This document shows, piece after piece, positions 78-24,400 of a stretch of DNA of 26,386 bases. The translations under genes were made by a program, and so were the position numbers. The first letter of the stretch is position 1. Each line of letters opens with the position of its first letter. The notes beneath the pieces were generated by a model. The model saw only the letters and a list, made by a program, of their open reading frames with translations, ran no database searches and was not told where the DNA came from. Origin of the DNA: Folioceros fuciformis (Eukaryota); assembly GCA_049999805.1 (NCBI GenBank), contig JBNGIO010005925.1:99673-126058 (forward strand), given 5' to 3'.

Positions 78-3000
78 CTACCTGGACAGCACGCCGTTGG
101 CAGAGTGGTCGAAGACCGAATTTCTCGTCACTTCCCCCACGGGGAACTGCCGATTGGCTTGACCACTTGTGACTTCCGGATTCCGCTGCCCGTTGAAGTA
201 GACGGAGTAAGGAAAATACTCCGAGCACCGCTGCCTCCACCCTGAACATATGTACGTAGGTTGTGCGCATTTCAGCTATACAAGGAAACAAGGAGATGGG
301 TGAAAAAGGATGTCAGTAGTGCGAAAAGGCTTACGAGAGCCTGCGTCGACATCGTTGAATGTGTTGCCCAGAATTTTGTGGGTCTCTATAGCATCTTCCA
401 ACTCCCATTCGCCCACCCCCTCCGCAACTGCTCCACCCCTGCTTTAGCATGACGACAAGAGAGCAGTGAACTGCTGTGCGTCCACTGAGGGAATGGAAGG
501 ATATGTGGAGATGACAAGCACTACAACATCGCGACACATACCTGGGAGTTGGCTTATTGACCGAAGATTCAATGATCTCCACTGCCTTCTCTTTCGAATC
601 TGGAGACAAGAGGAGGACAACTTTCGCTGCTGACACCCTATGCCGCAATGATTCTGCATGCCAACAATTTACCATTACTCTAGACAGCACAAAAGAATGA
701 TAGGCCTGGATGCAGTTGACAAAACTCGATTCCCACGGACCAGAATGAGCCTCGAGAAACGCGTCATTAGCATCCTTCAGGGATTTCCCAGCCAAGCTCC
801 TGTGACAGGTGCCCCAAGAAAGGTTCTCTAAGAATGAGCGTTGAATGAAGTCCGCCATGGAAACTCCTCTCACAAGCCAAACCGAAGCAAGATGCAGTCC
901 AAGTTGAATTGCAAAGGCTTAAACGTACGATAAAGTCTCTCTTTCCAATTTCAGCACACTTCGCACAAGGTTTTCCGAATCTGTTTGCGCAGCAGGAAGG
1001 CCATCCACAGCATGAAACAGCCGTATCTGCAAAATGAAACAACTGCATCAGTCACAGCACCATGCATACAACTTCCCGCTGTGATAGCATCAAGGCCGAC
1101 AAAGTGACCCATATTTTCAGTTCCCAGCTTGACGAACAGACCAGCACTTACCAAACACTCATGAACATCTGGGTCCTCCGCATTTATTCTCAACTGTCGC
1201 TTCACCGCCTGCAAGGTCAATTAAAACGGTTTCAATGAGTAACACCGAGGTCAGATGTGATCAAGAACACACAATCCTCGACAGCACCAACATTGCACCT
1301 CAAAGTTTGGGACAATTCACAAGCAATTTTAACGACACCATTCATCAAGAGCTGGGTGTACGTCACACCATACCTTACCTTTATGAACTCCACTGTCTGT
1401 TGGACATAGAAAAATCACCCAGAAAAAATCTAAAAACATATCCCTATGATCCGGTATTCTCAGCCCATATTTGTAATCACTAAAGCTTCAGAAGTAGCTG
1501 ATTATCATGACATCACAGAATATCGGATACCATTTGCATTTAGGCATTCCCAGAACACATCATGGACCAAAAAAGATTCATATCAAAGCGGTAACATCAC
1601 ATTCCCTTCGTTCTTGAGCACTGTGCATAGGCACTCTTGCTTCTAACTGATGGAAAACAGCATCCGATTTTCTTGACAAGAGAAAGGAGGATATGACCAG
1701 CAGTTTTGACTTATGCAGCAGTGATCAATCAAACACGGACGGCACCAAACGACCACTCTCAAGTGCAATAAAATGCAGCTCCATCCACACGATGCATACA
1801 GATGTCCCAAAATGGCTACATACCTGTAAAGCAAGGAGGGTCTTGCCCCTACGAAAGTAAACTTCAAACGCCAGCAAATGTGTCTCAAGTGAAAGGGAAG
1901 AATGATCTTGCAAGAGCTTCAAATATTTCAGACTCTCTTGAAGAGGATGTTCAACCTGCTCACCAAAGTAGTTTCGGGTTGGACTTACAATTGAGCAAAT
2001 ACAGCTAGCTCTCATCCCACAGCCCAGCAAACGGGGGTCTAACGAGCAATCAAGTTCGTATGGAAGTACATGTTTAAGCTTCTCCCCATCTGGATCACTG
2101 TCAACAGCTTTAGGTGCCTGCACACCCCTCTTTCCACCTTTGTTTGCAGCCAATGCCGCGGCTTCTTCCTCTTTAGCTTTACCTTCTGCTTCCTGCCAAG
2201 AGGAATGCTGGATCACATGACCTTGCTGTTATGCTGAAAGCCCATACCACAACTGTATTGCCAGCCACCATACCTTTTTCGCACGTGCTTCAAGTTTCCG
2301 TGCCTTAAATTTCATCCTCTTGCGCTCAGCTGGTGGAAGCCCTGCAGCTGCAGCCTCTTCTGCCTCCACAGCTGCCTTGGGCGGTGAATCATGTAACAAT
2401 AAATAGCACCTGCTTCACGTGAAATTTGTTAATCCACACAGGTAGAAGGACATAGACAATACGAAGCTGAGTTCACCATCTTCAGACAGACCTTATGGCT
2501 GCTGAAGCAGCTCGGCAGAAGAAGCGATGTGAATGCAATTGGTCCTGAAACCTTAGCATTCGGATGTAGGCACGGAGAGTCATCTTCCGTAGGCAATACG
2601 TATGAAAATCAAATTGGTCCTCGACCATGTCGTTGTAGTGCTTCTCCACTGACAAATACTTCTTCAATGCTTTTCCCAAAGACCCTTGACGAAAATGACT
2701 ATCGCCAGACGCTAATTCGTACCTACATGGAAAAATGCCACAAGAAGCTCAGAAAGAGGTGCCTGGAAACCATCCTGTGAGCTTACTCTCAAACTTCATG
2801 CAGCACATACCACATGCATTGCATGTCAAAAAGATTGTTGTGCTGATCACCATCTTTAGTGAACAGAACTGCTGTCTTTTCTGCTAATTCGACCTGCAAC
2901 ATGTGGGAAAGGTAAGAGAACAAGACAAAAAAAACAACAAAGTGGAACAGGTGCCACTATAGAGTGAGGGTGAGCAACAGAAACCACAAAGAATTTTCAA

Positions 3001-6000
3001 TGCTTCAAGCTGAGACCATTGCTAATGTGCTAACCAGATGCGGTAACGAACAACTCAACACCAAATCTAAAACAATGACCTTGTCCTGCAAGGTTCGAAA
3101 AATGTGTACCAAGGTACAAGTCCCGAATCTGTAAACGCGTGTGGCTTACTTGATCTGCTTGCAGCATCCTCTTGACGCACTCACTATTCAAAAACCTATC
3201 CGCAAGGTCCATTGTCCGAGCTTCATCTGCTAGATTTGCTGCAGTAAGGGGATCACCTGCATGCTTCAATATCCTTCCCTGAAAGATGGAAACAGTTCAG
3301 TACCCAACCCCACCTGGAGCTTCAATAGAGGCCTACCTTTCACTGCAATTAGGCATTTGAAGGAAACGACTGAAGAGGACATTGGAACTTTACTTTGACA
3401 AGATACAGGTCAATAGCCGTGGGAGTATGTGCAAGGGCTGTGTCAATATTTTCCAAAGCTTTGCTATGCAGCCGCCTTTTGTCATAATGCTGCAAATCAC
3501 CATCCCTTTGGACATTAACAAGCTGGATCGCAAACAATAAACCTAGAGAATACAGGAAAGAAAAGAACTGCCTCCACTTCATCCACACCTGGGCAATGAG
3601 AAACAAGGTCCACATAAGAGTTGATGGAGGCTCCTTGTCAGTGCTGTAGATCAACCCAGCCATCAGGAAACAGCACGTCCAAACCGATTCTGGTCCATGT
3701 CCCCAGGACTACATGAACATAGCTCAACCACAAATACCTGGAGGGAAAGCACCCTGTGCTCTGTAGTGCAGACTCCACTCCCAGAAAGACACGTTCCATG
3801 ATATCTGCCTGTACTGAGCGTACAGTTGGGATAATCAAACTATTGGGGCAGAGGGCATAGAACAGCTGCTTAAGCAACAAAACCGAGTTCTCACCTTTCC
3901 AGGATGATGATACAGAGGTCGCAGATCAGAAAAAAGGGACGGGACACCCTGTGACCACAGAAGTTCAAATGAGCATACGAACAAAGCTCTAAAGTACACA
4001 AGAAAGAACACCAGAGAGCTCCATTGTGGAGAAACTTCAACACCAGCTCCAGTTTCAACAACGATCTAGTGGAGGGCAGCTGATGAAGGAGAGTCGAGAA
4101 AATCCACCTTTGCAAGAAAAGGCCTGACATACGTCTCTAGAGCTCTCTCGAAAGCCTCACCCTCCAAAAAGTCAAAAGGTATGCGCTGAAGACAAGAGAA
4201 AAGATTTCCAGCACAACCAACCAACCTGTCATTAAGGGCATGCCTTAGATAGGTAAAGAGATGCCGATCGGCACCTAAATGATCAATAGGACCACAACTA
4301 ATACTTCAACGTTGAGTCATTCGTGGTGTCAAAAGTATGCAAAATTGAGCAGAGGGACTTTGTACCTTTGCAGCTGCAGAGTGCGGATATTTTGTACGAA
4401 GTCCATCATAGAGCACAACAAGCTTTTCCACCTGTTCAGTGGTATAGCCTTGTCCATTTTGTGGCCACAATCCCAGGCATTTCTGCAGTCCTTCATAGTA
4501 GCTGCCACCACATACAGCTGATTTCAGGGCACAAATCTATGACAGTTACAGCTATCCACAGTAGTAACAAGCAGCAGCTTTGCACTTGCCTATAGTTGTC
4601 CGGGTTAACAGTGAGGAGCTGTTTGTAAGCATCTTCTGCCTCCTGCAGACGCTTTGTTTGTAAAAGTAAGCTTGCACGATGTTCGCGCAGACCTAACTTG
4701 TCAACCTGCCACATGGAAGGCATTTGTTAGATCACAAGAGAAGCAGAAACAGTGGGTATGAGACAGGACATCGAGAAGGACGGTGTAGGAGAGAGAGAGA
4801 GATACGTTAGTAAACCAAATTGGAGAAGACACTAAGCCTACCAAATGAGGTCAGCTTACAGAACCATACAATTTTGATATCCTTTCTCGAAAGCTCTTCG
4901 AGCGCTCTTTCTGGAGCGCCTGCTTCCTCGAGCAAAGAGGCCTGCACAGGTCATGAGCAAAAGGTACTTGAAGACAGACGGCACAAGTTACGGAGACGGA
5001 TGGACGGAGACGGATGGGGAGAGGAGGTACGACGATTCGGGCAACACACCTTGTAGAGCAACATCTCACTGTGCTCATAACGCTCATTGTCTGGCGGGAA
5101 GTCTTCCTCCAATGTGCCTTCATATGCTTCGAGGATTTGAACAGCCATACCAGGACTGTGGCAAAACATCATGTAGTGATCAGTGACCCGCCATATATTT
5201 CCAGCGAACGTACAAGACGAACATATCTGTCAAGACGTGCAAGAAGGGGAGGGGGGAGCTGAGACAAAGCAGGCAACCAAGTAATACTCACTCAAAGTTC
5301 ATATGGTGCGAAATTGCAAACCCAATCCAATTGTTCCGGTGGCTAGGCTTTATAGTCAAGAGCTGCCTGCGCGTCTCAACAAAGCCTGCCAAATCTCGCA
5401 TTTGTGCCTGCGGCACACCACAGTGTCAAGCACATCCAGGAGCGTCATCTCAGATTTGACCTGGAGCCGGACACATTATTCACCTGCAGGAGTGACAGGT
5501 CCCGAAGAATCTGAATGTTTTCTGGGTCAATCCGCAGCGCATTCCTGTAGCATTTGATAGCCTCCCGGTACTCACGGTCCGATCGATAGAGCAGCCCGTA
5601 GACGTGCCAACAGACATGGCTCTTGAGGTCATTCTGGCAGGACAGAGGTGTGGCGTCAACACCCGCGGGGCAAGCGAACACAGATGCATTCAAGCTGCCT
5701 TGACTCACCTTGAGCCCTTTCCGAACGAGCTCATACGCCTCAGCCTTGCGCTCCATGCAGTTGAGGGTGAGTCCCTTCATCGCCAAAGTCTCTGCGACAA
5801 GCAGCGTGGCACCCGCACGGAGGACGTTGGATTGAGCGTTGCAACCGGGCAGCGCAGCGCAGCACGGCAGAACGGTGGGATTGGAAGATGCCTACCTCCA
5901 TGCTCGGGAAATTTCTTCAAAACCTGGTCCGACGCCTTGAGTCCCTTCTTGTACTGCTTGGTCTCGTAGGATCGCTGCAAGAGCGGAGGGTGGGAATCAG

Positions 6001-6115
6001 AGAGAGCAGGAGGGATGGAAGGCAGCACCAAATTCCAGCAACACGGGCGACATGAAACACAAACCACGATGAATTTGAAGAGGTTAGCCTCCTTGGGCGG
6101 GAGAGACGAGCCCAT
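78..6115 (-). CDS. NAA15: NatA N-terminal acetyltransferase auxiliary subunit (TPR/NARP1), ~26 exons
   Basis: The spliced minus-strand translation runs [30 protein letters not shown]...[25 protein letters not shown]...[16 protein letters not shown]...[18 protein letters not shown]...[10 protein letters not shown]...[16 protein letters not shown]...LSR*. These are hallmark NAA15 motifs. ATG is at 6113-6115 and TAG at 78-80. Introns are phase-compatible GT-AG except one GC-AG (4502-4589). Confidence 0.95.
1379..1396 (-). other. Candidate 18-nt in-frame cassette micro-exon (TVEFIK) in NAA15 intron 1209-1823
   Basis: The minus strand reads ...gatttttctatgtccaacAG|ACAGTGGAGTTCATAAAG|GTAAGG. It has a T-rich tract, an AG acceptor and a strong donor, and matches the phase-0 host intron. 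No transcript evidence. Confidence 0.35.
1449..1528 (-). ncRNA. Intronic box C/D snoRNA, candidate LSU rRNA 2'-O-methylation guide
   Basis: Sense to NAA15: box C GTGATGT (1516-1510), D' CTGA (1491-1488), C' GTGATTA (1480-1474), D CTGA (1463-1460). The boxes are closed by the terminal stem ATCCGATATTC/GAATACCGGAT (10/11 bp). The D' guide AATCAGCTACT is complementary to the conserved LSU segment AGUAGCUGGUU with one G-U pair. Confidence 0.75.
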
Positions 6116-7356: not shown

Positions 7357-8054
7357 TCACTGAGGAGACGTAGAGCCAAGGACTGGCGATGGAGGACTCT
7401 CCGCTTCCTGCTGTAGAGAGCGGAGCTTGAACCTGGGTCTGGGAGCTTCATCCACGGAGGCTGTGACAGTGTCGTCTGGAAACAGCGGGTTCTTGGGACT
7501 TGCTTCCGGCTTGAACACGAAATTGAACACCAGGTTGTTGACGATGGTGAGCAAGACGAGGAATGCGGCACTGTAAGCCAGGAAGCTGTCCGTGAGCTCA
7601 GGGAATTCGAATTTGGCATCCTCTTTCCGGACCTCGGATCCTGCATTGCGTTGCGTTCCATTCCATTCCCTCAGCACACAGCGGAACCAACGCTGAGAGT
7701 CGCAGAGATGAGTTGCATCCATTCCGCCGCAGCCGATGCGGAAGCAGCAGTGACATCGATAGCAGACGCAGTGGAGAACTCACCTGGTAGCACCCGCAAG
7801 GGCTGGGGCTGGGGCTTGGGCTTGGTGACATTGGGACCGGACCGGCCGTTGGGGCTGGAGAGCTGGCTGAGCTGCTGGTCCAGCTCCTTGAGAGCCCGCT
7901 TCGCCTGCTCCTCCTCCTCCCTGCCTGCGCTGCCGTTGTCTCCGCCCGCGCGCACACCCAGAGAGGGCCCAGCCTGGCGCCGCCGCCGGGGCTGCTGGGC
8001 CACGAGGCTCGCAGCTGCGGGAGGACAACAGGAAAGATGCAGGAGCGTGCCCAT
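7357..8054 (-). CDS. Uncharacterised small single-pass membrane protein, probably chloroplast-targeted (2 exons)
   Basis: Exon 1 (8054-7784) has a transit-like N-terminus ending ...GVRAG, then AKRALKELDQQLSQLS. A GT-AG intron spans 7783-7641. Exon 2 (7640-7357) carries the hydrophobic helix SFLAYSAAFLVLLTIVNNLVFNFVFKP and TGA. Confidence 0.75.
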
Positions 8055-8385
8055 TTGATTCTCCCCACTGCCGAGTGGTCAGTCTGGACGGCAAGAGCTT
8101 TCCAGGGCGCCTGCAAGTAGCGCAGGTCCCGAAGAAGCTTCCTGCTCTCCTCAGCCCTCCAGTTGGCGGGGCCCAACGCCCTATAAAAACCCTCTGGCTC
8201 GTCAACCCGACCGGAACTCGAGCCTCCTGCAAGCAATCTAAGGAGTCAGATCTCTTCTGTGTGTGAGTAAGGCAAGGCTCGAGAGTGAAGGCGCGAGGCA
8301 CAACGCTGGTACTTCGCGCTTGGATCTGGGATTTCAATTTGCGACTGGCATTGCTGTGTGGGTTGCTTTGGACAAGAGGGAGGGG
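8055..8385. promoter_or_regulatory. Short divergent promoter region with TATA box and site II motif
   Basis: About 330 bp separate head-to-head start codons. GGCCCA lies at 8170-8175 and TATAAAA at 8182-8188 on the plus strand. Confidence 0.55.
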
Positions 8386-10043
8386 ATGACCTCTTTGCTG
8401 CCTGCAGAGATGACACATCTCATGTTGGGGCTTGGGGCTCGCATGGTTCCCCGGACAGTCTCCTCATCCTGCGTCTCCTCCTCTCTGTCTGCTGTTGGTT
8501 CCAGCTTTGGTGTCGCTCCGCATAGCGTCCAACCACCTGCCAGGGCTTGGGCTGTGAGAGCAAGCATCGCGAGGGAGTCTTCTGTCAGCAGCTCCGGCAC
8601 CGCCGGAAACATGTGAGCTTCCTGTTGCTGTTCTTGAGAGGATAATACTGGGGGTTGTCTTCGCATTTCGACACTATCTCACTGTGATTCCGTCGTTCTC
8701 TTGTTGTTATCTTGCAGGTCTCTCACCCACATTCCGAACGAGAACCTTCATGTCTCTACCCCGACGTGGTGGCTGGAGAGCAGGTTCCACTTCAGGTGAG
8801 ATGCTGTTTGCCGGCATCAGATCCTTTGTTTTGTTTCTCGCTCGGTAATGTGTTTCCCAACCTGAAAGATATCTGCTGGGTGGGTGGCTGCAGCTTTGCA
8901 GAGTACTACAATCCCAAGAACCTGGACTTTGGAGTGTTACGTGTTCTGAACGATGATCTGGTGAAGGTGAGTCTTGCTTGCCCAATCATTTCCTGTCGGT
9001 CAGGCGTCCACTACGAATGACTCGCTGATCAGACTGCCCGTCTATGGATTAGCCCCGAGCTGGATTTGGGACTCATCCTCATCGAGATGCGGAAATATTT
9101 ACTTACGTCGTGGATGGAAAGCTCACCCACAAAGACAGGTAGGCTCTCTGGTGTGCTTGTGTGCGGATGAGGACGGCACTGTTCATGACTGCACTTTACT
9201 GTACACGTAGCTCTGCGGTTGGCTTTGCAGTATGGGGACGGCGGAAACGCTGGGACGAGGAGCGGTTCAGTACATGAGTGCCGGCCGTGGTGTTACCCAC
9301 TCAGAGATGAACGACTCGGACGAATCGTCAGTGTGGACATCCCCCTGTTTCCTTCTGCTTTAAGTGAGGACCCTTCTTGTTACGATCGTGATTCATTCAT
9401 TATGCTCTGACATGAGGCTCCCGCTTCAGGTTGAGGTTCCTGCAGATCTGGATAAAACCTGATCAAAAAGGCTACCCGCCGAACTACGGCTCCAGGACTT
9501 TCAGGTACGCAAAAGCCGGTCATACGCCTTCCACAGGCCTCCTGCCTGACTCGAGGACTCCGACGTCTCACTTCCTGCCTGTCAATGCAGCAAGAGTGAG
9601 AGATATAACAAGCTCCAACACGTGGTCACAAGCTACGAGAGGTATGGACGAAAGGAAGACACCCACGAAGGTGTGATCCCCGTCCACCAGGACGTGAACA
9701 TCTACGTGTCAGAAGCCGATGCAGGCCTGGAGCAAGACTTTGTACTGAGCAAAACACGGCAGGCATACCTGGTGTGCATCGAAGGTTCCCTGGCAGTGAA
9801 CGAAAGCACGAAACTCGGTGCTCGTGACGCTCTCGAGGCACGCCCTCCTTCCTTCCCAGTGTGCTGAACTTGCATTTGCCTGATCACTCGTGCAAAGCTT
9901 TCTGAAAACTCTGCCGTGCTCCTCCCCTCCCTGTGCTGCTGCAGATCCGAGCTGAGAAAACTGCAGAGCTGCCCTTGAAGCTGGTGGCATACGCAAACCT
10001 TGGAGCCCACTTCATGTTGATCGAGATGGCCCTGTCCCCTTGA
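8386..10043 (+). CDS. Pirin-like bicupin of the bacterial YhhW/quercetinase type, with putative plastid transit peptide (8 exons)
   Basis: Exons: ~8386-8612, 8718-8795, 8894-8966, 9053-9138, 9231-9326, 9430-9504, 9591-9837, 9945-10043. They give WWLESRFHFSFAEYY...FGVLRVLNDD...GFGTHPHRDAEIFTYV...VQYMSAGRGVTHSEMN...FLQIWIKP...VHQDVNIYV. The metal-ligand motifs HxH and HxE are intact. The start ATG is uncertain (8386, 8410, 8422, 8443, or the split ATG at 8611). Confidence 0.9.
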
Positions 10044-11327
10044 TCCGTTACCTGCCTATGTAGCACGTCCTTCTGGAGGACTTGCGGAGTGTAGACTATG
10101 TTTGTACGTACGTGTGTGTGTGAGACTAAATTTTTGTGAGAGGTGCGCCCAAATGGGCTTTGCCACTTGTACATGGATGGATTGCTAGCAGTTTTGTAAG
10201 AAATTATAGCGTTCAGTGTTTGTTTTCTGTACAAGTCCAAGGATGCAAGACCTCGGTATCTATGGCTGTGAGCGCACAGTTAAGTTGCAGACGACTGAAA
10301 ATCTCCTTTGACAGCACTTTAGGAGCAAACTGCATCAGAGGTAAAACGCCGGATTGGCAACGACTGGAGACAGAAATACATAGCTCCGGTATCGTTGATC
10401 TTAAAAACTTGCTCCATGGCTTGAATCTCGTCAGCCCTCATGAACAGCATACGAAGCGATGGATCCGCAGCTCACGATGATAGTGCAAGGCACGCTTCGC
10501 TTCCTCAACCTGTCGCATAAAATTGCAAGGGATTGAATCACAAGTAAAGCCAGCTTGACACAAACGCAGTTTTCCTGACACTCTACTCCACCCAGACCCA
10601 GGCCAGATTCTGGGCTATATTGTACTTTACATATTTGCAAGGGCACTGTACATGTCCAGTTCAACCACGTGCCACGTAGGATTGTGGCGGGGTTGGAATG
10701 AATGAATTCGGCGTCGGTTCGGTGCCGAGTCGCAGCTGCACTCCGTTCCCAACGACTCTACCTAACCCCAACCGCCCCATTTCAAATGGCATAGATATAT
10801 CTATCTGGATGGATGGACAGTACAGTCCAGTCCAGTACTCTTTGTAGAGGCAAACTGGCAGTAGGAGGTGGGCGATGGGAGTTGGCCCTCTTTGAAGTGA
10901 CGATGCCAGCCAGGGCCAGGGAAGGCGCCAGCAGATGAGCGAGTAGTCTTCACGTTCCAGGTCGTTCTCCTTCTAGAAGCCAAAGCTAGGTCCGTGTCGC
11001 TGACGGGGCCAGGACTGGAACGGGGTCCAACATGGTGTGGAACCTTCCGTGCAAGCACACGGCTTCTGCACGTCGACTGCCTGTCTCAGCATCCGGGCCA
11101 GACACCAAGACGCTGGATGATCCAGGAAGCTCGGGACCATCCTGGCTCCTGCCTCCGCTGCTTGGCCTTTAAATCCCGCCTGTTGCCCTTGGTCCCGGCC
11201 ACCGCAGACAAGAGATTTCATGCTTGGGACAGCGTATAGAGCCACAATCTCGCGTACCGGTGCAGCAGCAGCAGCAGCTCGCCGCTTCGCCAATCCCGTA
11301 CCTAATTCTGCTTCAGTACAGGCCGCG

Positions 11328-13076
11328 ATGCCGGCTGGAGTGTTAAAGCACATCATGGGCACCGCAGGGTCCAGCGGGTTCGGGTCCAGGTCCACGGCTG
11401 AGCAGGTCTCGGAGGGCGTCTCGTTGCAGGACCGCACTGCGATTGTCACAGGTGGGCTTTTGGCGGATGTGGAAGCAGTGGGGCGTCTTTCGTGTCTCAT
11501 TTCGCTTATCTGTGTGGGGTGGGAGAATTGCAGGAGCTACGGCTGGTATCGGCGTGGAGACGGCACGCGTGCTGGCTCTGAGAGGAGCTACTGTCGTCGT
11601 TGCGGCTCGGAATCTTGCCAAGGCGGAGGGTGTGAAAGCCGAGATAGTGAAGAAGAATCCCAACGCCAAGGTGGAGGTTAGAGAATTGGATCTTGGCTCG
11701 TTTGCGTCTGTAAGGAAGTTCGCTGCTGCGTTCAAGGCAGAAAACCGGCCTTTGAATTTGCTCGTGTATGTCTCTCGCCACCTTTGCTTCGCTGTCTTTA
11801 TGTGACCAGGGTGGTTTTGGTAACCTCTCTCTTGCTCCTCCTGTCTTGTGTCGCCTGACTTTTGTGGTACTGCTTCCTGTGTGAAGCAACAACGCAGGAT
11901 ACGCGACATCTGAGTTCCGGCTGACTGAAAATGGCTATGAATCCGTCTTTGCGACTAACCACTTAGGTCAGCGGCCTTTCCCCGTTTCGAGGTCAAGACC
12001 AGCGTGAGTGGCAACTGACCTATGTTTTGCTGCTTAGGTCATTTTCTTCTCACCGATCTTCTGCTGGACAACCTGGTGGCCACTGCAAAGGACACGGGAG
12101 TGGAGGGGAGGATTGTGATTGTTGCATCCGATGCGCATGGAAACTTCAGGAACAGCAGAATACCCCTTAGTGACATCAATAACCCCAATAGGTGAGGGAA
12201 GGAAGGAAGGAAGGATATGCTTTCTCAATCTTTATTCAGCCCTACCGGGTCCTGCGATTCTGTTTCTTCGTAGTGACCCGGAGGTCCTTCCTCAAGATTT
12301 TGTTTGTACTCTTCTCTTATGCTGTCATGGTTGTTGAAACGCCAGGTTCGAACCAATGAACGCATATGCTCAATCCAAGGTTGCAAACATTCTACATGGC
12401 AAGGAGCTAGCTCGTCGCCTGAAGGTGTGTTTTTCTTCAGAAGTCGAGCTTCAGAAGTCACAAATGCAGCAAGTGCATATTGTGAACCCTCTCATGCTGG
12501 CGTCGTGGTTTAAAGATGCCAATGTGGCGGTTGGTTTTTCTTCTGAATGCAGGAGCAAGGAGCAAATGTGACAGTTAACAGCCTCCATCCGGGGTACATA
12601 GCGACCAACATCATGGACGAAATCTTCTCACCAGCTGCCAAAGGTAATGGGAAATGACGTGATTTCTCGTCTGGTTGTCTGACAGTGGGGTGACGGGGAA
12701 CACCCTTGGGTTGTGTTTAGCTAACCGATATGCTCCTCCCGTCCGTGGCGATTGCAGCTGCTTTCCAGATTGCAGGAGCAGCTATGATGAAGTCAGTGAA
12801 ACAGGTACACTTCAGGGTTCCACCTGAGCCGGTTTTGTCCTCTGCTGGTTCAAGATACTAGGCAGTCGAGCACTGCAGACTTGCGAATTGAGACGTTCGT
12901 GATTTGTGCAGGGGGCTGCTACAACTGTCTACGTCGCAACATCCCCCTCTCTTCGAGGAGTGTCGGGCAAGTATTTTGATAATTGCAATGAATCGGACAC
13001 TGCTCCAGGAGTGACGAGGGACTCGGGAGCAGCTGCTGAATTATGGGAATTCAGTAAGAAGGTTACCAAAGAATAA
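11328..13076 (+). CDS. Short-chain dehydrogenase/reductase, TIC32/retinol-dehydrogenase-like (8 exons)
   Basis: Motifs include [15 protein letters not shown], the Rossmann motif IVTGATAGIG, NNAG, FATNHLGHFLLT, catalytic YAQSK, NSLHPG and [10 protein letters not shown]...VSGKYF...LWEFS. TAA is at 13074-13076, and all introns are GT-AG. Confidence 0.93.
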
Positions 13077-13724
13077 GTGTACGCCCTTCTGGGTTTTCGC
13101 ATTCTGTATCCGTTCCCAGAGATCATGGTCCACTCTTTTCCATATGAGTACATTCTTGTATGGACCCTGGCTACAGATGGGCGATATCTCTTGCGCAGCT
13201 GCCAGAAACCAAGGAGTTTTTAGTACAGAAAGTAAATGGCCCTCCCTTGTGTCGAAGCCCATAGAGAAACCTGCATTTTAGGGTCACATGTAAGGTGGCC
13301 TCTGGTTTCCGACAATCCTGTCTCGCCATGGATGAATCAGACTTTGTTCCGGCGGCCTGGGCACGGCACGTAGTACGGGAGAGAAAGCTCATGTTGGAAA
13401 GAAGAATTTTCTGGTCGCTTACTGCAGTTTGAACAGATTATTTTCGATTATAAATAATATAAAGAATATTACTATATATAGTAATAGTTCCCCGGATCCG
13501 TGGAAGCAGAGCAGGACCAACACGGGGGCTCCAAGTAGCTTGTCTCAATCTGCAAGGAGGACAGGTAATTAGCCCCCTTCGAAACAGCCTTCATCTTTGG
13601 ACTGGATTTCTTGTCATCATCCTACACTCCACCAAGATTTCGTGGGAGTCACTTAATGACTCTAAACTAAAGGAGACTCTCACAGGCATGCTCTCTTACT
13701 TAGTTCACACATAGTTTACATGGA

Positions 13725-13799
13725 GGCATGCATTGGCAAGCATGAAGTGTGCGCATGGAGGTATGCATGCTTGCATGCCTGCCCATGCATGCAAGCATG
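13725..13799. repeat. GCATG-rich (RY-like) tract with 13-bp inverted repeat
   Basis: Multiple GCATG/CATGCA copies. CATGCTTGCATGC (13766-13778) pairs with GCATGCAAGCATG (13787-13799). Confidence 0.6.
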
Positions 13800-14170
13800 A
13801 CATCACCCATTCAAGCTAAGCAGCGGTAGAGAGATCCATGCGCAAGGCATTCAATGAGGGACAAGTTGTTTTAGGAGGGCTCCAGCTTTGCCTCCAAAAT
13901 GTGTTGAACACCCTTTGATATGGGGAGTGGAAGGAATTGTTTTGCCATGACTTGTTTTGTTTCCCATAGGATAAGATTCTTAAGAGGGAGGATAGCGGAC
14001 TTTCCACGAAAGAGACAAAGGGAATGCAGAAGAATGCAGAAGGGGCCCAGTCCAGCCACCCTGCTTTGGGGAGCTCTGCTGCGAGTGCTGTGCTGTGCTG
14101 TGGTAGTGTGACAGATTCAATGTACTTGCCCCATACATGGCGGGCTGGACGAAGTGTGTGGAAGAGCTGT

Positions 14171-14264
14171 GGCAAAAGGCAAAAGGCAAAAGGAAAAGGA
14201 TGTAGACTGAAGCGAAGGAAACAAAACCAAATTGGCATGGCATGGCATGGCTTGGCTTGGCTTG
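14171..14264 (+). repeat. Short tandem repeats (GGCAAAA)3 and (TGGCA)3(TGGCT)3
   Basis: Read directly at 14171-14191 and ~14233-14264. Confidence 0.8.
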
Positions 14265-14559
14265 TAAGCCCAACAACGTCTGGCTCATGCGCTCCCGACC
14301 CGACATGGTTCCGGATAAACTGAATGTGGTTCCGACGCAGGTGCATGAACCATACACGCTGGCACGGCCTTCGCCAGCCTAGCCCACCCTCGTGCTTGCT
14401 TGGCCTCCGGCGGGGCCCGGGTATCCGACGTGGGGCCGCCTCGTGTTGCCACCTCACCAGGCGGGGTCTTCACGATCAGGTGCATTGAACCTTGCCCTAC
14501 CCTTCCCGTAGGGCTGCTCGCCGGCCTTCGCCAACGGACCAGCCCTGCCCAAGGGACCC

Positions 14560-14681
14560 AGCCCAAGAATTCCCTTATGCTATAAGAGCCTGCCCTCAAA
14601 AACCTAACCTTCAAATTTCCCTTACACTCCAGCGTCCGCTCTGCTTCCCTCCCTTCTCCTCCTCCTCCTCCTCCTCCTCCT
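14560..14681 (+). promoter_or_regulatory. Putative core promoter (site II-like, TATA, pyrimidine patch, (TCC)n) upstream of the transposase-derived gene
   Basis: AGCCCA at ~14560, TATAAGA at 14581-14587, a CT-rich patch, and (TCC)8 at 14657-14680. Confidence 0.4.
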
Positions 14682-15102
14682 GGTTGGGCCGGCTCCGGTC
14701 GCCCTACTGATCAAGCGTTGTGCTGCGATTCCGCGGAAGCCTACGCGCTGCCAGAATTCTTGCTGCCGGGCTGCCGCGCATTCGGGGGATGTGCGGCGAG
14801 CTCGGGGACGCTGTTGGACGCGGGGCTTGAGCGGCAGGTGGTGCGCGCTTGGCTGGCTGCTGCTGTGGATCTCTGCAGAAGAGACCCACCATGCGCTGCC
14901 CGCTGCCGTGACCTGGTGTTTCAAACGGTGGACACCGTGGTGGTCAGGATGAGGGAGCGGAGGAAGGTGTAGAGTGGGAGAGGAAGGAAGGGAGCATGCA
15001 GCTGCGTGGCCTGGCCTGGGCACACCTAGCTTTCCAAGGGCCACGGGGCTGGAAGATGCTTGTGGTGAGGAGGGGAGGGAGGCTCCGTGATCGCATTCCG
15101 AG

Positions 15103-15202
15103 NNNNNNNNNNNNNNNNNNNNNNNNNNNNNNNNNNNNNNNNNNNNNNNNNNNNNNNNNNNNNNNNNNNNNNNNNNNNNNNNNNNNNNNNNNNNNNNNNN
15201 NN
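15103..15202. other. Assembly gap (100 N)
   Basis: Run of N. The true length is unknown. Confidence 0.99.
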
Positions 15203-16907
15203 CCAGCATGCGGAAATGCAGATGGAGAGCTACGAGCATGTGGTGCACGGGCACTCGGACGTGCAAGCGTACAAGGACCACCTCCACCATGAGCATGACC
15301 ACCGGACGGTGGCCTTGGATGCCTATGAGGAGCGGCAAGACGTTCTTGACGCAGAGAGAGACCGGGACGTGGATATCGAGTCCCCGCAGCAGATCGAGAG
15401 ACCGGGCGTGGATATCACGTTTCACACCATGGACAGGCCCCGCGAGACGGAGCTCACTTTTCAGCAGCTGCTGGAGAGGCCCGATATTTCCTTCGCGCCA
15501 CCGCAGCAGCTTCTGGAGCAGCAGTTCTGGCCGCCTATCTCCCTCACCCTGCACACCAATGGAGCGGATTGTACGCAACAGCAGTCCATCAAGCCCAACA
15601 AGAGAGTGCGGCAGACGGGGAAGACGCAGACTCATTACCAGAAGGAGAGGCAAAAGAGTCTAGAGATGGTGCTCAAGTTGCCCATCAAGACGAGACAACT
15701 TTTCTGCGTCTCCGAGTTCTACAAGTACATGGCCTCCAGTCGCCCCAAGTCCCCATCCTTGAAGGTGCCTATCTGCTTGCAACTGTTACTTCGGTTTTCG
15801 TGTGCCGTTGCTCTGCGGATGGCTTGCATCGGCAGTCATGTGCCGCCTCTTCACACTTTAATTTTTTTCCCTGCCATGGATCGCAAAACCTTTTCCCCAA
15901 CGTGCAGCATTGATGCTGCCCTGTTTCTGTCTGAAGGTTGTGGAGGATTCTGCGAACCTTGGAGGAAGTCAGCTTGAGGGAAAGGCATTGTGCTGGCTCT
16001 CTTATCTAATTGCTTAGATGATAGAATCTTGGGTGGAAGATGTGTAGTACGTGTAGAGGACTTGCATCTGTGTCGTCTTCATCTTGGATGATGCACTTGT
16101 TTCTCTGTTGTGATCGGACGTTTGGTGAGTCTGGATTGCTTGTCTGCTCGTCCGACATTGAATGCTCGCTCCCTTTCTACTTTCTTGCATGCACTTGCCA
16201 TTTTTTTCCTTTGTTTTTTGGAGAATATTTGGACATTTCACTATGCCGGGCCTGAAATACTGGTGTAGCTGGGATGCTTGGTGTAGGTCACAGATGCTTA
16301 TGAGAAGGCAGGTGAATCTGTGGGTGTGACTGTGAAAACAGCGCGCAAGTGGGTTGAGGACTGGGAAAGTCGCGGAGACGGAACTTTCTCCGACTCTAGG
16401 CAGGTATGTCTCGGCTGCCTTGTGATTGCTGCTATTCAACGTTTGATGGTGGAGCTACCTCCTTGGATCTTAACATGGTAAACGTCTTCTTTCAGGGCAA
16501 GCATGCTAAGGTTGAGTGGATTCTTCAACCAGAACATCTGCAAGCCCGCGCTCGGCAATGGATAGAACACAACTGCCCGAAGAAGGGTGACCCTCCACGC
16601 AAGGAGTCGATCATCAATCAGTTCCGAGATTTTTGCAACACTGACCTTCTGTTAGAAGTACAGGTGAGTGGTGGTTGAGTTTCCTGCACGGGAATCGGAT
16701 GGGAAGCGCCTACCTCTTACGGAAGGGGTTCTCATCCAATGTTCTTGTTTGTGTCAGCAGGCCCCTAAGCAGACAGAGGGTGGGATGGACATGGCGTTGC
16801 CCTCTCATCGAAAAATTTCCAGTGAGACCGCCAGGTCCTGGCTTCACAGACTTGGATTTCATAATTTTAAGGATTTCAGAGGTTCCTCTGTAAAATCTCA
16901 TCAGTAG
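15203..16907 (+). CDS. Transposase-derived DNA-binding protein: low-complexity N-terminus plus two IS630/Tc1/mariner-like HTH domains, no DDE domain (5' end in or near the gap)
   Basis: Exons <15203-15764, 16287-16403, 16496-16663 and 16758/16761-16907 are joined by phase-0 GT-AG introns with no internal stops. They give ...PSLK|VTDAYEKAGESVGVTVKTARKWVEDWESRGDGTFSDSRQ|GKHAKVEWIL...ARQWIEHNCPKKG...QFRDFCNTDLL...|...KISSETARSWLHRLGF...HQ*. Confidence 0.75.
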
Positions 16908-17930
16908 CCTGTCTACATTCATTGTTCCTTCCTTTATTTTTAGACTGTAAAGATACGTTCTGAGATACCCATGCGATGGTCGTGACCCGGAGAGTTGGAG
17001 CTCATAAATGGCATTGTTTACGTTCTCCGGTGAGGGAATAGATGCCACTATACAAATGATATAGCGTCCACTTGGGGATCGTTGTTTGCGAAGAGTGACC
17101 CAGTTGTAGACCCCTGTTACGGCAAGGTATGTTGAAACAAAAGTAATCCATAAGACAAGAAAATACATTAGACGAAGGTACGGTAGGTTTGGACTGTAGC
17201 ACAAGCAAGTGAGAACATTCGAGGCACGTTCTTTCATGTCATATGCCTGAGATTATGTCTACAGTGTCCATAGCAGCGACCATCGAACGGTATCTGAAAA
17301 GCCCATCCATCCCTACCTAGAGACAACACTGTATTACGGTAAACATCCACGTCTGCCATTGATCCAGCAAATGTGGGAGCATGGTGGATGTGCTTCAGTT
17401 GTCTGAAGAAGAGTAGCAGCGGTCCTTCAGCCGGCTGACAGACGAGTAGCTCTCAAACAACAGCCGTACATTCACCTGCTCCACACCTGCCAGAACTATG
17501 ACGAACATGTTTCGTTGTCCACCCCAACTGCTTGAGAAGAGAACCAAGCTTTTGGTTGGGTTCTGATCTTCAAAACACAGTGCACCTTCTGCCACGCGCT
17601 CGCTCCTGGAGGTTACAAGGAAAGGAAGGTTATGATGGGGAACACTCGCCAAGCCTGGCATACACGAATTCAACCAATCCAAAGAAGGAGAAGAAATATG
17701 TATTACGAAGTAAACGAGGTTGTCAAGGGGATCATTACCTGTCAAGCTTGGTTTGCCTCTAACCCTAACTGGAGAAAGGTCCCTCCATCGAAGTTGCGGT
17801 GCCAAGGGAGACCTGAGTGTTACAACAATTAGGGACCAGAAAACTCGGAGCTCAGAGCAGAATCTCATGTGTCAACTACCTGGACGTGGGTCCTGAGGAA
17901 ATATGCAAATTACATTAGGGCACGCTGCAA

Positions 17931-18641
17931 CTATGCTTGCACTGCAATCGCGTTACAAGGGCTCAGCTCATCAATGCTGTCCCACTCTTGCCAAATGTCC
18001 GGCACAGCTTCCCGCACATTGTGCAAGCTTGCCACAGCATAGCAAGCCCCTTCCGACCGCTCGAAGCTGCCCACCAAAACAGTGTTAAGGCCTGCAAACC
18101 TCGCAGCAGCAATGTTTCGAACGCTGTCGTCTAGAAAGAGAGTTGTAGCAGCATCCACCTGCGCCATCTCCACGGCCCGTCGGAACGCCTCCTGTGCAGG
18201 CTTGCAGACTATGCCACTATCCTCCGCCTGCTGGATGGATTCCAAAGAGATTACGCCCTCAAAGCAGTCCTCCAGCCCCAGCCTGCGCAAAACCTCGAAG
18301 GCATGCACTCTGTCCGCGTTGGTAAAGATCAGCTTGCGCTGCGGCATACTGAGCAGCAGCCTCCGCAGCACCGGATCCGGATGCAACGCATCGTAGGGAA
18401 GAGCCCCGTGCACGAAAGCGTGGAATTCATCCAAATCCACTCGGAACCCTTCTGCGATCAGCCCTGCCAGTGTCGTGCCGTGCTTATGGTACAAACGCAG
18501 GCAATCATCCGGCACTGTGGAAGCTTCCATTCCCAGCCTCTCCACCATGAACTGCTGGATGCGCTGCCTGCACACGGCAGCGAGGCCCGAGCTGAGGGGG
18601 TACAACGTATCATCCAGATCGAAGAGCAGACAATCATATCT
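17931..18641 (-). CDS. HAD-superfamily hydrolase, pyrimidine 5'-nucleotidase (SDT1/PHM8-like); start lies in the gap
   Basis: Uninterrupted ORF with motif I CLLFDLDDTLYP, HGTTLAGL, motif II IFTNAD, motif III CKP and motif IV LFLDDSVRNI. TAG is at 17931-17933. Confidence 0.92.
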   Translation of the reverse strand, partial: RYDCLLFDLDDTLYPLSSGLAAVCRQRIQQFMVERLGMEASTVPDDCLRLYHKHGTTLAGLIAEGFRVDLDEFHAFVHGALPYDALHPDPVLRRLLLSMPQRKLIFTNADRVHAFEVLRRLGLEDCFEGVISLESIQQAEDSGIVCKPAQEAFRRAVEMAQVDAATTLFLDDSVRNIAAARFAGLNTVLVGSFERSEGACYAVASLHNVREAVPDIWQEWDSIDELSPCNAIAVQA

Positions 18642-18741
18642 NNNNNNNNNNNNNNNNNNNNNNNNNNNNNNNNNNNNNNNNNNNNNNNNNNNNNNNNNNN
18701 NNNNNNNNNNNNNNNNNNNNNNNNNNNNNNNNNNNNNNNNN
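18642..18741. other. Assembly gap (100 N)
   Basis: Run of N. Confidence 0.99.
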
Positions 18742-19049
18742 GACACCGAATAGCATGCTGCAGTGATCTGCCGACTGATGCCGGAAGAGACTCCTGACAA
18801 GCGGAACCAAGACCTCCAACACTCTGAGCAACGTTTAAACGAACGGGCCTTGCCTATAATTAGGGAACAATGCGACACGACGTGCACGACCTGCAATGAA
18901 CTAACTTGCCTCTTGTCACAGCGATATTTCTGTCCCGTGGATCACAAATCTCAAGGGATCCGGAAGCTCAGCTGCGAAGATGAACGGCCCACGAACCTGC
19001 GAACTAACACTAACTATGAGGTCGAAATCGACAGGTGGTAGGTCATGAT

Positions 19050-19980
19050 TAGTATTGTGGTTTTACATCTTACCTATTTTACATTACCAGCATAAATTAC
19101 GGTATAAATTACCGAACCCCTTGATAAGGGTCAGTAACTGTGTTTTTTATTACACTTAAATTATAAAAAAATAGAAGATTATACCTGTAAAGGGTTGTAA
19201 AATTACATGGCATGTGTAAATTTACACACTTTCTGTAATTTATAGTGTATACCTAATATAACTTTAAAATATGTAAATATATGTAAAAAAAGTAAATATA
19301 TATAATATTTACTTATAATATAATATAATAAAGATCCAAGAAAATTAACTTATAAGCTCAAAATGGAGACACCTTCTTCATTCTTTTCACTCTCTTCCCG
19401 ATCTCTAGATTCTATTTCTTCATTCTCCTCCATTTCACCATGGCAGATGTCTTCTATACCACTTTTTACAACCACATTGGTTCAAGACTTTCTAAGTACA
19501 CGCCATCCAATCCTCCCAATCTCTTGCTTCAATAGTAGCATTATGTCCTTTTAACACTCTACTATTATAGTAAACATAGACAAGCATATCAATCAACCCT
19601 GTCCACCATGGTTCTAGCTCTATTACTACGCTAAACATGTTTCTTTCTCTATTATTACGCTAAACATGTTTCTTTCCCCTTCTATTGCAATTGGAGGAAT
19701 GCTCAACAACTTTTTTGCTACATCTCCAAGTTGCGGACATTCCTCTCCACATGCTTCCCAGCACTCCACATTGTTATATATCAACCCTTCTTGAAAATGT
19801 AGTTCTTTGTCAATACATAACTTACCAAGTCTAAGGCAATAACGATTGAACTGCAACAAAACACAATGAGCTTCACTAGTATTAGATGCCAATGCCTTTA
19901 TGATATGCTCACCTTTCAACCTATCAGCTACAAAAAAATGTCAGGCAATCTATCAACAAGAGAAATGCCAATCATGACTC
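19050..19980 (-). mobile_element. Degenerate, 5'-truncated hAT DNA transposon
   Basis: The minus-strand translation has the hAT C-terminal dimerisation motif CWEACGEECPQLGDVAKKLLSIPPIAIEGERNMFS and, in a shifted frame, DMLVYVYYNSRVL, then an acidic tail. The AT-rich 3' region carries AATTAC/GTAAAT subterminal repeats and ends at a candidate TIR TAGTATTGTGG at 19050. No partner TIR was seen. Confidence 0.8.
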
Positions 19981-20543
19981 ATAATCCTGGTAGCTTGCGA
20001 TAAGTAGGCCATTTAGGATTAGTGGTGGGCACGGTGCTGTCCTATCAAGCACCTACCCCAGTCGAATTCCAGCAAACGTTCCCCTCGACAGTTTGGGAAG
20101 GAATCCCTACTCGTTTCTAAGGCAAATGCACTAGAGAAAAGCATGTCGTTTTCTATCAAACTCCTGTGATGAGAACGAGTGGGGTTCCTGAGCTATGGGC
20201 TGATCGATTGTTGTTCAGGATGACGATATTCTTGTGATGAGTCCCGTGCCCGCTTGACATCTTTTATACCTACTCCTACCCAATCTCCCATGCTAAGGAG
20301 GTGGACCCTTTTGCATGGGCAAGACAGTAGAAGTGGGCAAACATGCAACACAGACCGTGTTGCCAATTTGGACATTAAGCTTGATCTTAGTGTTTTTGGC
20401 TTACAATAAGTTTGGTTGCTAATCCCGCAGGTTATGTACGATGTGGGTGTGAGATGTACAAATTTTAATTTGTTTGAATGTGAATTTTTCAAAGCAAGTA
20501 GGTGCATGTAATCCACATGGCTCCTTAAAGACTAAAAAAGCAT

Positions 20544-20625: not shown

Positions 20626-21414
20626 TACTCGTTAGAGCAGACATTGTTGTCTTTGCTAGTGCCATTTTGTTCTAATCCACTTTGGTTTTTGCTATGTCTT
20701 CACTATCCAAAGGTTGACACAAGTTGTTGATTAGTTACTAGCCTTTTTTTCTATGGTGTCTCTAATTTTTGTCTTCATCCTCCTAATACTCAAAGATACC
20801 ACTTGAGCTTTGAGACAAATTTTCTCAATTATAGATATATCTCCTTCACTCAAAGTTGGATTGCACCTCCTTATGGAGGGTTGAAGGAGAGCTCTTCCAA
20901 TGCATTTAGTGAAAACCTTAAATTCATGTATGATTCGCATTAGGGACTAGCAATGCGTATTGGGAAGTTAGCATGAATGTCAATAAAATTTCGAGCACAC
21001 AGGAAAGCAGCCAAGGTCACTATACAACTCCCAAACAACAATCCAACTCCTAATCTCCCTCTTTGAAAAATGTTTTTCAAGAATATTCTAGAAAATGCAC
21101 TATAACTATTGCATGTACTGTACTGTAACGAGGATAACAATGATTGGTACACTCGGTTTTGAAATAAAACTCTACCCTGAAAAGGTGAATTTGGTGACGC
21201 AACGAAAAATATTCCATGGACTTCACATTCGAATAGAAATCTCGGGTGAGCTCTTCAGTCGTGGTGTGTCTCGTCGGAGGTCCTGTCGGGCGAGCTCCTG
21301 CGGAGCAATGGCTGTCTGGAGGCTGGCTGGTGTTCTCGGAAGAGCTGGCGCTGGGTTGAGTTTAACGACCCTGCTGTTGGAAGACCAGAAAGGCGTCAGA
21401 GCTCTTGTGATAGC

Positions 21415-24400
21415 ATGGCTGCCTGGAGACAGATCTCGCAGCGAGGTCGTCACCAGGAGCTATTTGGGCGACAAGGTTTTCGGGACTCGGCAGCTTGGCA
21501 ACTTCATAACAGCCTCCGTTCATCTGGTGCCCCGCAGGTCGAGGTGGATTGTCACACCTCCCGTTGGCACTGGAGCTTGCCGGATGATGCTGCGCCTGGC
21601 AGGTGTGAAGGATACGAAGGGAGCGTAGGCGCTGGCACCGTGAGCGAGCTATGTTGTCAGGGGCATCTCTATGAGGCTGTTGAGGCTTTGGGAGTTTTGG
21701 TGCAGAGGGGGGATTTCGTTTCCAAGTCTCTTTTTTACACTGTGCTCAAGAGATGTACGGTGGACAAGAACCTTGTTCTCGGTCGTCGGGTCCATGCTTT
21801 TACTGTTAAAATGGGGCACCAGTCAGACACGTTCCTGTGCAACCACATTCTGCGAATGTACACTTCTCATGGCAGGTTGCAAGACGCCATGGATGTGCTT
21901 GCTCTGGTTGGCAAGCCAGATGCGTACACTTGGTCTGCCATTATCTCTGCGCATGTTAAAGAAGGAGAGGGCGAAGGGGCCATAGAGCTATATCGGCTGA
22001 TGCGTAGGTCAAGTGTGAGGCCGGATGGCCATGTTTTCGTGGCGGCTCTTCAGGCCTGTACAAGGGGAGCAGACTTGACTACTGGGCGGCATCTGCATGC
22101 AGATGTGTTGGCTAGTGGGGTAGAGCATGACTTGTTTGTTTGCAATTGCTTGGTCGACATGTATGGAAGGTGTGGCAGCTTGGAAGACGCCCGACGAGTG
22201 TTTGATGGCCTGGGTCTGAAAGACGTGGTGACGTGGAATTCCATGATATCTGCGTATTCCCACCATGGAATGGGGCATGAAGCATTCCTTTTGTATAGTG
22301 CCATGCAGAACGATGGTGCCGCCGTACCCGATTGTGTGACATTTGTGTGCCTCTTGCAGGCATGTGCAAGTGTGGGCGATTTGGGTTTGGTGACGGGCAG
22401 GCAGCTTCATGCAGAGATTAGAGAAGCAGGTCATCAAGCTGATGCATTTGTTGCAAACAGTTTGGTATCCATGTATGCTAAGTGTGGCAGCTTGGAGGAC
22501 GCACGCGAATTATTCCACGGTCTCAGGAAGAAAGATGTGGTGACATGGAATGCAATGATAGCAGGGTGTTCCAAGCAGGGCATGGGCCAGGAAGCCCTTC
22601 GTCTTTACAACGAAGCGCAAGAATGTGGCGTGGCTGCGCCTGATCGGGTGACATTTCTGTGCCTCCTGCAAGCATGTGCAAATGTTGGCAACTCGGCTCT
22701 GGAGAAGGGGAAACAGCTGCATGCCCAGGTTGAAGAACGGGCATATGGAGCTGATGTGTTTGTTGCCAACAGTTTGGTTAACATGTATGCAAAGTGTGGC
22801 AGCTTGGAAGATGCTAAGAGATTGTTTGACGGACTTGTTCAAAGAGATGCAGTGACATGGAATGCCATGATAGCAGGTTTTTCTCGCCAGGGCATGGGCC
22901 AGGAAGCTCTTTACCTCTACAGTGAAATGCAAGAACAGGGCTTGGCTGAACCTGATAATGTGACATTTCTTTGCCTCCTTCAAGCATGTGCAAGTGTGGG
23001 CACCACTGCTTTGGAGCTGGGGAGACGATTTCACGAGCAGATTAGAGAACAAGAGTACCATGATAATTCATCTGTTGCCAGCAGTTTGGTGAACATGTAC
23101 GCAAAGTGTGGCAGCGTGGAAGATGCACGGAGAGTTTTTGAGGGACTTGGTCCCAAAAATGTGGTAACGTGGACGGCTCTCATTTCAGGATATTCTCAGC
23201 ATGGAATGGTCCAGGAGATGCATGATTTGTACAACGCTATGCTACACGAAGGCATTGTCGTGGTGGATTCCGTGTCATTTGTGTGCCTCCTGCAGGCATG
23301 TTCACGTATCGGTAGTCCAGGTCTCGAGATGGGCAAGCAGCTTCATGCTCAAATTAGGGATCGAGGACTTCAAGCTGATGTCTCTGTAGCCAGCGCTTTG
23401 CTGAACATGTATGCTAAGTGTGGCAGCTTAGAAGACGCAGAGGAAGTGTTCAACGGTTTTGGTGAGAAAAATGCCATGATGTGCAATGTTATGATAGCAG
23501 GGTATTGCCAGGAGGGCATGGGCCAGCAAGCCCTTAGTCTTTACATTGCAATGCAAGAAGAAGATGTGGCTTTACTTGATGCCATGACGTTTGTGTGCCT
23601 CCTGCAGGCGTGTGCTGTTGTGGGCAACTCCTCTCTGGAAATAGGAGTTCGGCTGCATATGCAAATCAGAGAACGAGGGTATCAAGCTGATGTGTTTGTA
23701 TCGAGCAGTTTGGTGAACATGTATGCCAAGTGTGGCAGTGTGGAAAACGCACAGAAAGTGTTTGAAGAACTTGGTCAGAAAAATGTGGTAACATATAATG
23801 CTATGATAGCAGGCTTTGTCCACGAGGGTATGGTCCAGGAAGCCCTTCGTGTCTACTCTGCTATGCTAGAAGAAGGAATTAGTTATCCGGACTCCGTCAC
23901 ATTCGTGTGCCTCTTGCAGGCAATTGCAAGTTTGGGCAGCCCGGCTTTGGAGATGGGGAAGTCTCTTCATGCGGAAATCAGAAAAAGAGGAGATGAGGCT
24001 GACGTTTTTGTGGCAGGCAGTTTGATAAGCATGTATACAAAGTGTGGCAAATTGGAGGACGCACGCACAATATTTGATGGGCTTGGTAAGAAGGATGTAG
24101 GTACATGGAATGCCATGATAGCTGGGTTTTCCCAGCAGGGTATGGGCCATGAAGCCCTTGGTCTTTACGGTGCTATGCTAGATGAAGGCTTGGCTGGACC
24201 TGATTCTGTGACATTTGCATGCCTGTTGCAAGCCTGTGCAAGTGTAGGCAGGCCAGCATTGGAGGCGGGCAAGAAGCTTCACGCACGGATCAGAGCACAA
24301 GGACATGAAGGTGATGAATTTGTAGTTAGCAGTTTGGTGAACATGTATGCAAAGTGTGGCAGCTTGGAGGACTCTCGGAGAGTGTTTGACACACTGAGTA

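Follow-up and report, generated by a model that had tools for sequence, protein, structure and literature searches.

A predicted box C/D small nucleolar RNA gene in the longest NAA15 intron of a bryophyte-grade plant, with a guide for the counterpart of Arabidopsis 25S A945

The 26,386-nt stretch of contig JBNGIO010005925.1 analysed here (the window) contains a gene for NAA15, the auxiliary subunit of NatA, and within the longest intron of that gene lies an element with the features of a box C/D small nucleolar RNA (snoRNA). We consider it probable, at about 0.72, that this element (1449..1528, minus strand) is a genuine intron-encoded box C/D snoRNA gene of about 80 nt. Its predicted job is 2′-O-methylation of the nucleotide corresponding to A945 of Arabidopsis 25S ribosomal RNA (rRNA). 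This would be the same job as that of the box-D guide of angiosperm snoR12/Z44, but the backbone and the mode of expression differ, the guide is at D′ and the host intron is new. The gene would be of an ordinary type, in a place not seen before.

The limits of the element were set by its sequence, by the span of the best Rfam match and by a terminal inverted repeat, and all of its parts are read on the minus strand. From 1528 to 1449 these are the 11-nt 5′ arm of the terminal stem (1518..1528); box C, GUGAUGU (1510..1516); a spacer of 18 nt, the last 12 nt of which form the D′ guide (1492..1503); box D′, CUGA (1488..1491); a 7-nt linker; box C′, GUGAUUA (1474..1480); a 10-nt spacer that is a possible second guide (1464..1473); box D, CUGA (1460..1463); and the 11-nt 3′ arm of the stem (1449..1459). 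The arms pair at 10 of 11 positions, the sole mismatch being A1523 against C1454. The stem is present in the minimum free energy fold, and a repeat search reports it as a 12-nt inverted repeat (1449-1460/1517-1528) with 92% complementarity. The overall fold energy is unremarkable (z = 0.30), which is expected, since the terminal stem is the only helix of a C/D RNA.

A 3-nt bulge followed by tandem G·A opposite box D is the kink-turn (K-turn) register of C/D RNAs. In the element the stem closes at C1518-G1459, the bulge consists of U1517-G1516-U1515 and overlaps box C, and G1514 and A1513 then stand opposite box D at A1460 and G1461. Box C ends in U1510, where the consensus has A, and this base is opposite G1464. 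The element has the class features that can be read from sequence, namely boxes C and D, a K-turn stem, internal D′ and C′ boxes and a guide of at least 10 nt. A preliminary description of this DNA had listed the four boxes in the same order, a 10/11-bp terminal stem, a K-turn with a 3-nt UGU loop and a variant last U of box C facing a G next to box D; all of these were recovered on the minus strand. A second inverted repeat (1517-1535/1655-1673, 19 nt, 79% complementary) was also seen, through which the 5′ stem arm could pair with the intron 120 nt upstream; it may represent a competing or external helix of the precursor messenger RNA (pre-mRNA), or chance.

To the eye of a scanner looking for [AG]TGATG, a CTGA 50-115 nt downstream and flanks paired with at most one mismatch, the window holds a single candidate with a stem of at least 8 pairs. 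This is the 1449-1528 element, with 10 pairs and internal D′/C′ boxes. As controls, 1000 dinucleotide-preserving shuffles of the window were scanned after removal of Ns (the window has two assembly gaps of 100 Ns each, at 15103-15202 and 18642-18741). Boxes C and D with a stem of at least 10 pairs appeared in 46 of the 1000 shuffles, the same combination with internal D′/C′ boxes in none, and a stem of at least 8 pairs with internal boxes in one. The 11-mer of the guide occurs once in the 26,386 bases, counting both strands, where 0.03 occurrences are expected, and any match to it was found in 3 of 100 shuffles.

According to the fifth-nucleotide rule, the rRNA base opposite guide position 5 becomes methylated. 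Counted upstream from box D′, guide positions 2-12 (1493-1503) form ten Watson-Crick pairs and one G·U pair with AGUAGCUGGUU of 25S rRNA, an uninterrupted 11 bp with Arabidopsis 25S 942-952, and position 5 (U1496) is opposite the second A of AGUAGCUGGUU. The target letters were taken from the Arabidopsis RiboMeth-seq table of Wu et al. 2021 (PMC8053127), which reads C U A G U A G C U G G U U C C C at 940-955; its entry for A945 carries the tag ‘Nm’ with a MethScore of about 0.94 and names the guides SnoR12, Z44, SnoR12-1a, SnoR12-1b, SnoR12-2 and SnoR30. The same paper describes T-DNA (transfer DNA) lines disrupting the U24.2 cluster, in which SnoR12.2 and the methylation of A945 are both reduced. 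Am945 was independently mapped by Azevedo-Favory et al. 2021 (PMC8583080), where AtsnoR12-1a/1b are assigned to Am2127 and Am945, in a table row that has no human or yeast counterpart entered.

On these letters, the guide selects the nucleotide that corresponds to Arabidopsis 25S A945, an already known Nm that a known guide family serves in flowering plants. The preliminary description had predicted an 11-bp guide duplex, the selection of the second A of AGUAGCUG by the fifth-nucleotide rule, and the possible existence of an equivalent guide in angiosperms. The duplex and the selected base were found again, and the angiosperm equivalent is snoR12/Z44. Because A945 is mapped and assigned to snoR12/Z44, the target is known rather than new; the match confirms the target but takes away most of the novelty. 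Assignment of the target to the U51/snR39 site (Arabidopsis A816) was ruled out, as the segment of 25S that holds G814, A816 and A826 is not the one paired here. The energy of the duplex between element and target is -15.0 kcal/mol, a value matched by 22 of 1000 shuffled versions and bettered by many tiles of the window, and it is not discriminating.

The NAA15 host gene extends over approximately 114..6112 of the minus strand, as judged from Pfam, from tblastn blocks against moss NAA15 and from homologues named NAA15. The minus-strand frames flanking the element match Pfam NatA_aux_su (PF12569) with up to 122.7 bits, and the closest database relatives of these frames bear the name NAA15. The host intron, 615 nt long, occupies 1209..1823 (minus strand, GT..AG). 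A 2795-nt transcript contig of run X4 has four CT..AC joints, which skip 125, 615, 114 and 81 nt of the genomic sequence; the 615-nt skip coincides with 1209-1823 and confirms both the intron and its minus-strand GT..AG ends. From the spacing of the tblastn blocks the other NAA15 introns measure roughly 55-256 nt, so that the host intron is the longest of the gene. Host, intron and the shorter length of the other introns had all been put forward in the preliminary description. Between the element and the splice sites are 295 nt on the 5′ side and 240 nt on the 3′ side. No second copy of the host intron was found within the window by repeat search.

Two further TGATGT motifs are present in the host intron upstream of the snoRNA, at 1600-1594 and 1563-1557 (minus strand). 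A second contig of run X4 (174 nt, depth 2.6) is wholly intronic, at 1610-1783, also upstream of the snoRNA. It may stem from unspliced RNA, DNA carry-over or another source. No RNA contig from runs X1, X4, X5 and X6 covers 1449-1528, but contigs of this type would not reveal a small RNA or its ends, and neither observation is evidence on expression. Among sequencing runs recorded as containing the stretch, the only ones are two DNA runs, which may be the source of the window.

Intron-encoded box C/D snoRNAs are the usual arrangement in vertebrates, and the window element resembles generic members of that type in being one per intron, in its translation-linked host, in its terminal stem with K-turn and in having, by prediction, a single active guide. 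In plants, intron-encoded snoRNAs are described as few, most snoRNAs being in polycistronic clusters (Patra Bhattacharya et al. 2016, PMC5122169); unlike these, the window element sits alone in an NAA15 intron. That NAA15 makes a functionally fitting host is speculation, for which no evidence was found. NAA15 was not found as a snoRNA host in the titles and abstracts of the eight papers naming both.

The source of the window was placed through its NAA15 sequence. A conserved exon is 92-94% identical to that of mosses, 91% to that of the lycophyte Diphasiastrum, 84-88% to those of ferns, 81-87% to those of liverworts and 73-78% to those of angiosperms; in ungapped tblastn blocks the identity is 76-79% with mosses, 68-73% with liverworts, lycophytes and ferns, and 63-71% with angiosperms. 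In a FastTree phylogeny of 526 window-covered columns and 41 homologues, rooted on Klebsormidium and read with support values left aside, the window is on a long branch within bryophytes, sister to the sampled mosses. Judged from these protein comparisons, the source is a bryophyte-grade plant without a close relative among the proteins compared.

With snoR12/Z44 (RF00204) the element shares the selected rRNA nucleotide, the class of ribonucleoprotein and the chemistry. Its 12-nt guide is that of snoR12 save for the wobble position, where the window has U and the Rfam snoR12 consensus has C; the shared letters show no common descent, because pairing with the same target demands them. The last parts of the snoR12 consensus are, in order, a C′ box (UGUGAU), a short run of bases, the guide and the terminal box D (CUGA). 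The guide for A945 is thus associated with the terminal D in snoR12 and with D′ in the window element. The D′ guide for A2127 in the snoR12 consensus has no counterpart in 1449-1528, nor in the shifted register considered below. With regard to linkage to U24/SNORD24, the 26-kb window has no SNORD24 or other Rfam match, and the element is intronic in a protein-coding gene, whereas the snoR12 copies that were fetched lie about 60-80 nt from SNORD24 in snoRNA clusters. Clusters of snoR12 with U24 are also described in the survey cited above (PMC5122169), which dates snoR12 to flowering plants; the organism of the window is of bryophyte grade. Against the snoR12 model, which has a cut-off of 39 bits, the element scores 14.5 bits, and even this score is obtained only when the register is shifted (1483-1556) and D′ is taken as the terminal D. 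By sequence the element is not a member of Rfam snoR12, and in its predicted function it is like the D guide of that family.

Metagenome contigs were scanned for a GTGAT box, 3-12 bases and the guide with CTGA, which gave 17 loci with 18 occurrences of the guide. Eight occurrences, at seven loci, are of the snoR12 type (among them L004, L005, L010 with two, L012, L016 and L017), in which a C box stands 66-98 nt upstream and a terminal D follows the guide; the other ten, at ten loci, are without C/D architecture. NAA15 was absent from all 17 loci by tblastn. Rfam was run on five of the 17 loci (L004, L009, L010, L012 and L014). The positive controls, L004, L012 and the two copies of L010, score 67.9-88.9 bits as snoR12, each beside SNORD24/U24, and L009 and L014 gave no Rfam score. 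The snoR12-U24 clusters, at L010:1348-1612, L004:1955-2189 and L012:1829-2073, show that these metagenomes include nuclear DNA of plants. In L010 the two snoR12 copies are in tandem and differ by U versus C at the wobble position of the guide. One of them (L010:1528-1612, 88.9 bits) is a true snoR12 with a guide identical to the U variant of the window, which shows that an accepted member of the family tolerates the G·U pair.

Among Rfam families, the best match to the element is SNORD121A (RF01191), with 26.5 bits and E 0.0053, spanning exactly 1449-1528. The two are alike in overall length, box spacing and terminal stem, and the match runs from end to end. The score is below the cut-off of 44; boxes and stem are all that is similar, and the guides have no relation to each other. 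The resemblance to SNORD121A, as far as the sequences go, is one of shape and not of membership. At E<=10, the segment 1380-1620 gave 16 matches, all of them to C/D snoRNA families, all on the minus strand and all below threshold, and the adjacent 241 nt of the host intron, used as control, gave a single match, which was not to a snoRNA. The Rfam check that the preliminary description had suggested supports the class through these 16 of 16 sub-threshold matches, but yields no family at gathering score.

Several points weigh against a genuine snoRNA gene with the predicted target. The small RNA itself is a prediction from sequence. Across the whole window no Rfam family is reached at gathering scores, and there is no match at E<=1 either. 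The final base of box C is U and not A, the second spacer has only 10 nt and no known target, and the guide duplex includes one G·U pair. The letters of the target are those of Arabidopsis 25S, their conservation in the organism of the window being assumed. Finally, none of the 18 guide occurrences at the 17 metagenome loci has the arrangement of the element, in which an internal D′ follows the guide. The form of box C is not a defect, because SNORD121A, SNORD72 and SNORD24 likewise have UGAUGU in their Rfam consensus lines.

Some of these points would also fit an element that has decayed, or that never functioned. Such a snoRNA-like copy, a pseudogene or recent relic, would have its motifs intact but form no stable small nucleolar ribonucleoprotein and add nothing to methylation; any methylation at the A945 site would depend on another guide elsewhere in the genome. 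The non-consensus last base of box C, the short second spacer without a target, the failure to reach any Rfam family and the lack of an orthologue among the 17 metagenome loci are all compatible with this. Neutral decay, however, would be expected to break the four boxes, the K-turn register, the 11-position stem and the uninterrupted 11-bp guide, all of which are intact, and UGAUGU is a normal box C in accepted families. We regard a decayed or never-functional copy as unlikely.

It is less probable still that the element has been read in the wrong register and is in fact a divergent homologue of snoR12. In this arrangement box C would be the AUGAUGU at 1563-1557, GUGAUGU would serve as C′ and the terminal D would be 1491-1488, for a length of 85 nt. 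The 14.5-bit match to snoR12 is in this register, as is one to snoR122 (21.9 bits at 1484-1568), and in true snoR12 the A945 guide does precede the terminal box D. Neither score comes near its cut-off (39 for snoR12 and 36 for snoR122), the element lacks the A2127 guide that snoR12 has at D′, and no usable terminal stem can be formed, the five flanking positions offering one Watson-Crick pair and two G·U pairs. The 1449-1528 register is better, with its 10/11-bp stem and the highest score of 26.5 bits.

That short motifs merely coincide by chance in this long intron, without an RNA product, is very improbable: each box is only 4-7 nt long, and the duplex energy is reached by 22 of 1000 shuffled versions and bettered by many window tiles, but the full architecture arose in none of the 1000 shuffles, and the guide is unique in the window against an expected 0.03 and is placed in precise register with both a CUGA box and a known methylated nucleotide.

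Elsewhere in the window, an uninterrupted frame of 1369 amino acids at 21250-25359 (plus strand) is full of pentatricopeptide repeats (PPR) and ends in an E motif at the C terminus (PF20431, 46.9 bits). Its make-up suggests a PLS-class PPR gene without introns, a type associated with RNA editing in organelles. Pfam at E<=0.001 gave no match for twelve more open frames (146-227 amino acids) between 7417 and 23067; in the stretch separating NAA15 from the PPR gene (7400-20500) the analysis covered this Pfam search only.

If the 1449-1528 element is a snoRNA gene as we propose, its expression and action would follow the established biology of intronic C/D snoRNAs. The snoRNA would be transcribed within the NAA15 pre-mRNA, and the intron would be trimmed to the terminal stem after splicing, or the RNA set free through endonucleolytic release. 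The C/D K-turn and the internal C′/D′ boxes would recruit Snu13, Nop56/Nop58 and fibrillarin. The D′ guide would then pair with AGUAGCUGGUU, and fibrillarin would 2′-O-methylate the nucleotide opposite guide position 5. The 10-nt spacer before box D is possibly inactive.

No new mechanism is revealed by such a gene. A bryophyte intronic guide for the A945 nucleotide is nonetheless mildly unexpected against the background given by the plant survey (PMC5122169). The date published there for snoR12 may be a detection limit, because homology searches miss distant relatives of short, fast-evolving snoRNAs. It is conceivable, at somewhat under even odds, that Am945 is an older land-plant modification and not an innovation of angiosperms, guided here from the D′ position of a snoRNA unrelated to snoR12, encoded as a single gene in an intron of NAA15, the ribosome-associated anchor of NatA. 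If so, the guide function would have moved between snoRNA backbones or arisen twice, with a switch between intronic and clustered organization during land-plant evolution.

No snoRNA annotation was found listed for mosses. For a bryophyte-grade plant lineage the element would mean one more snoRNA gene, so far without annotation, along with an rRNA methylation that it is predicted to guide, and it offers a concrete test of whether the Am945 site of Arabidopsis predates the flowering plants. A single guide specificity carried by different backbones and modes of expression would also bear on how maps of rRNA modification may stay stable despite turnover of their guides.

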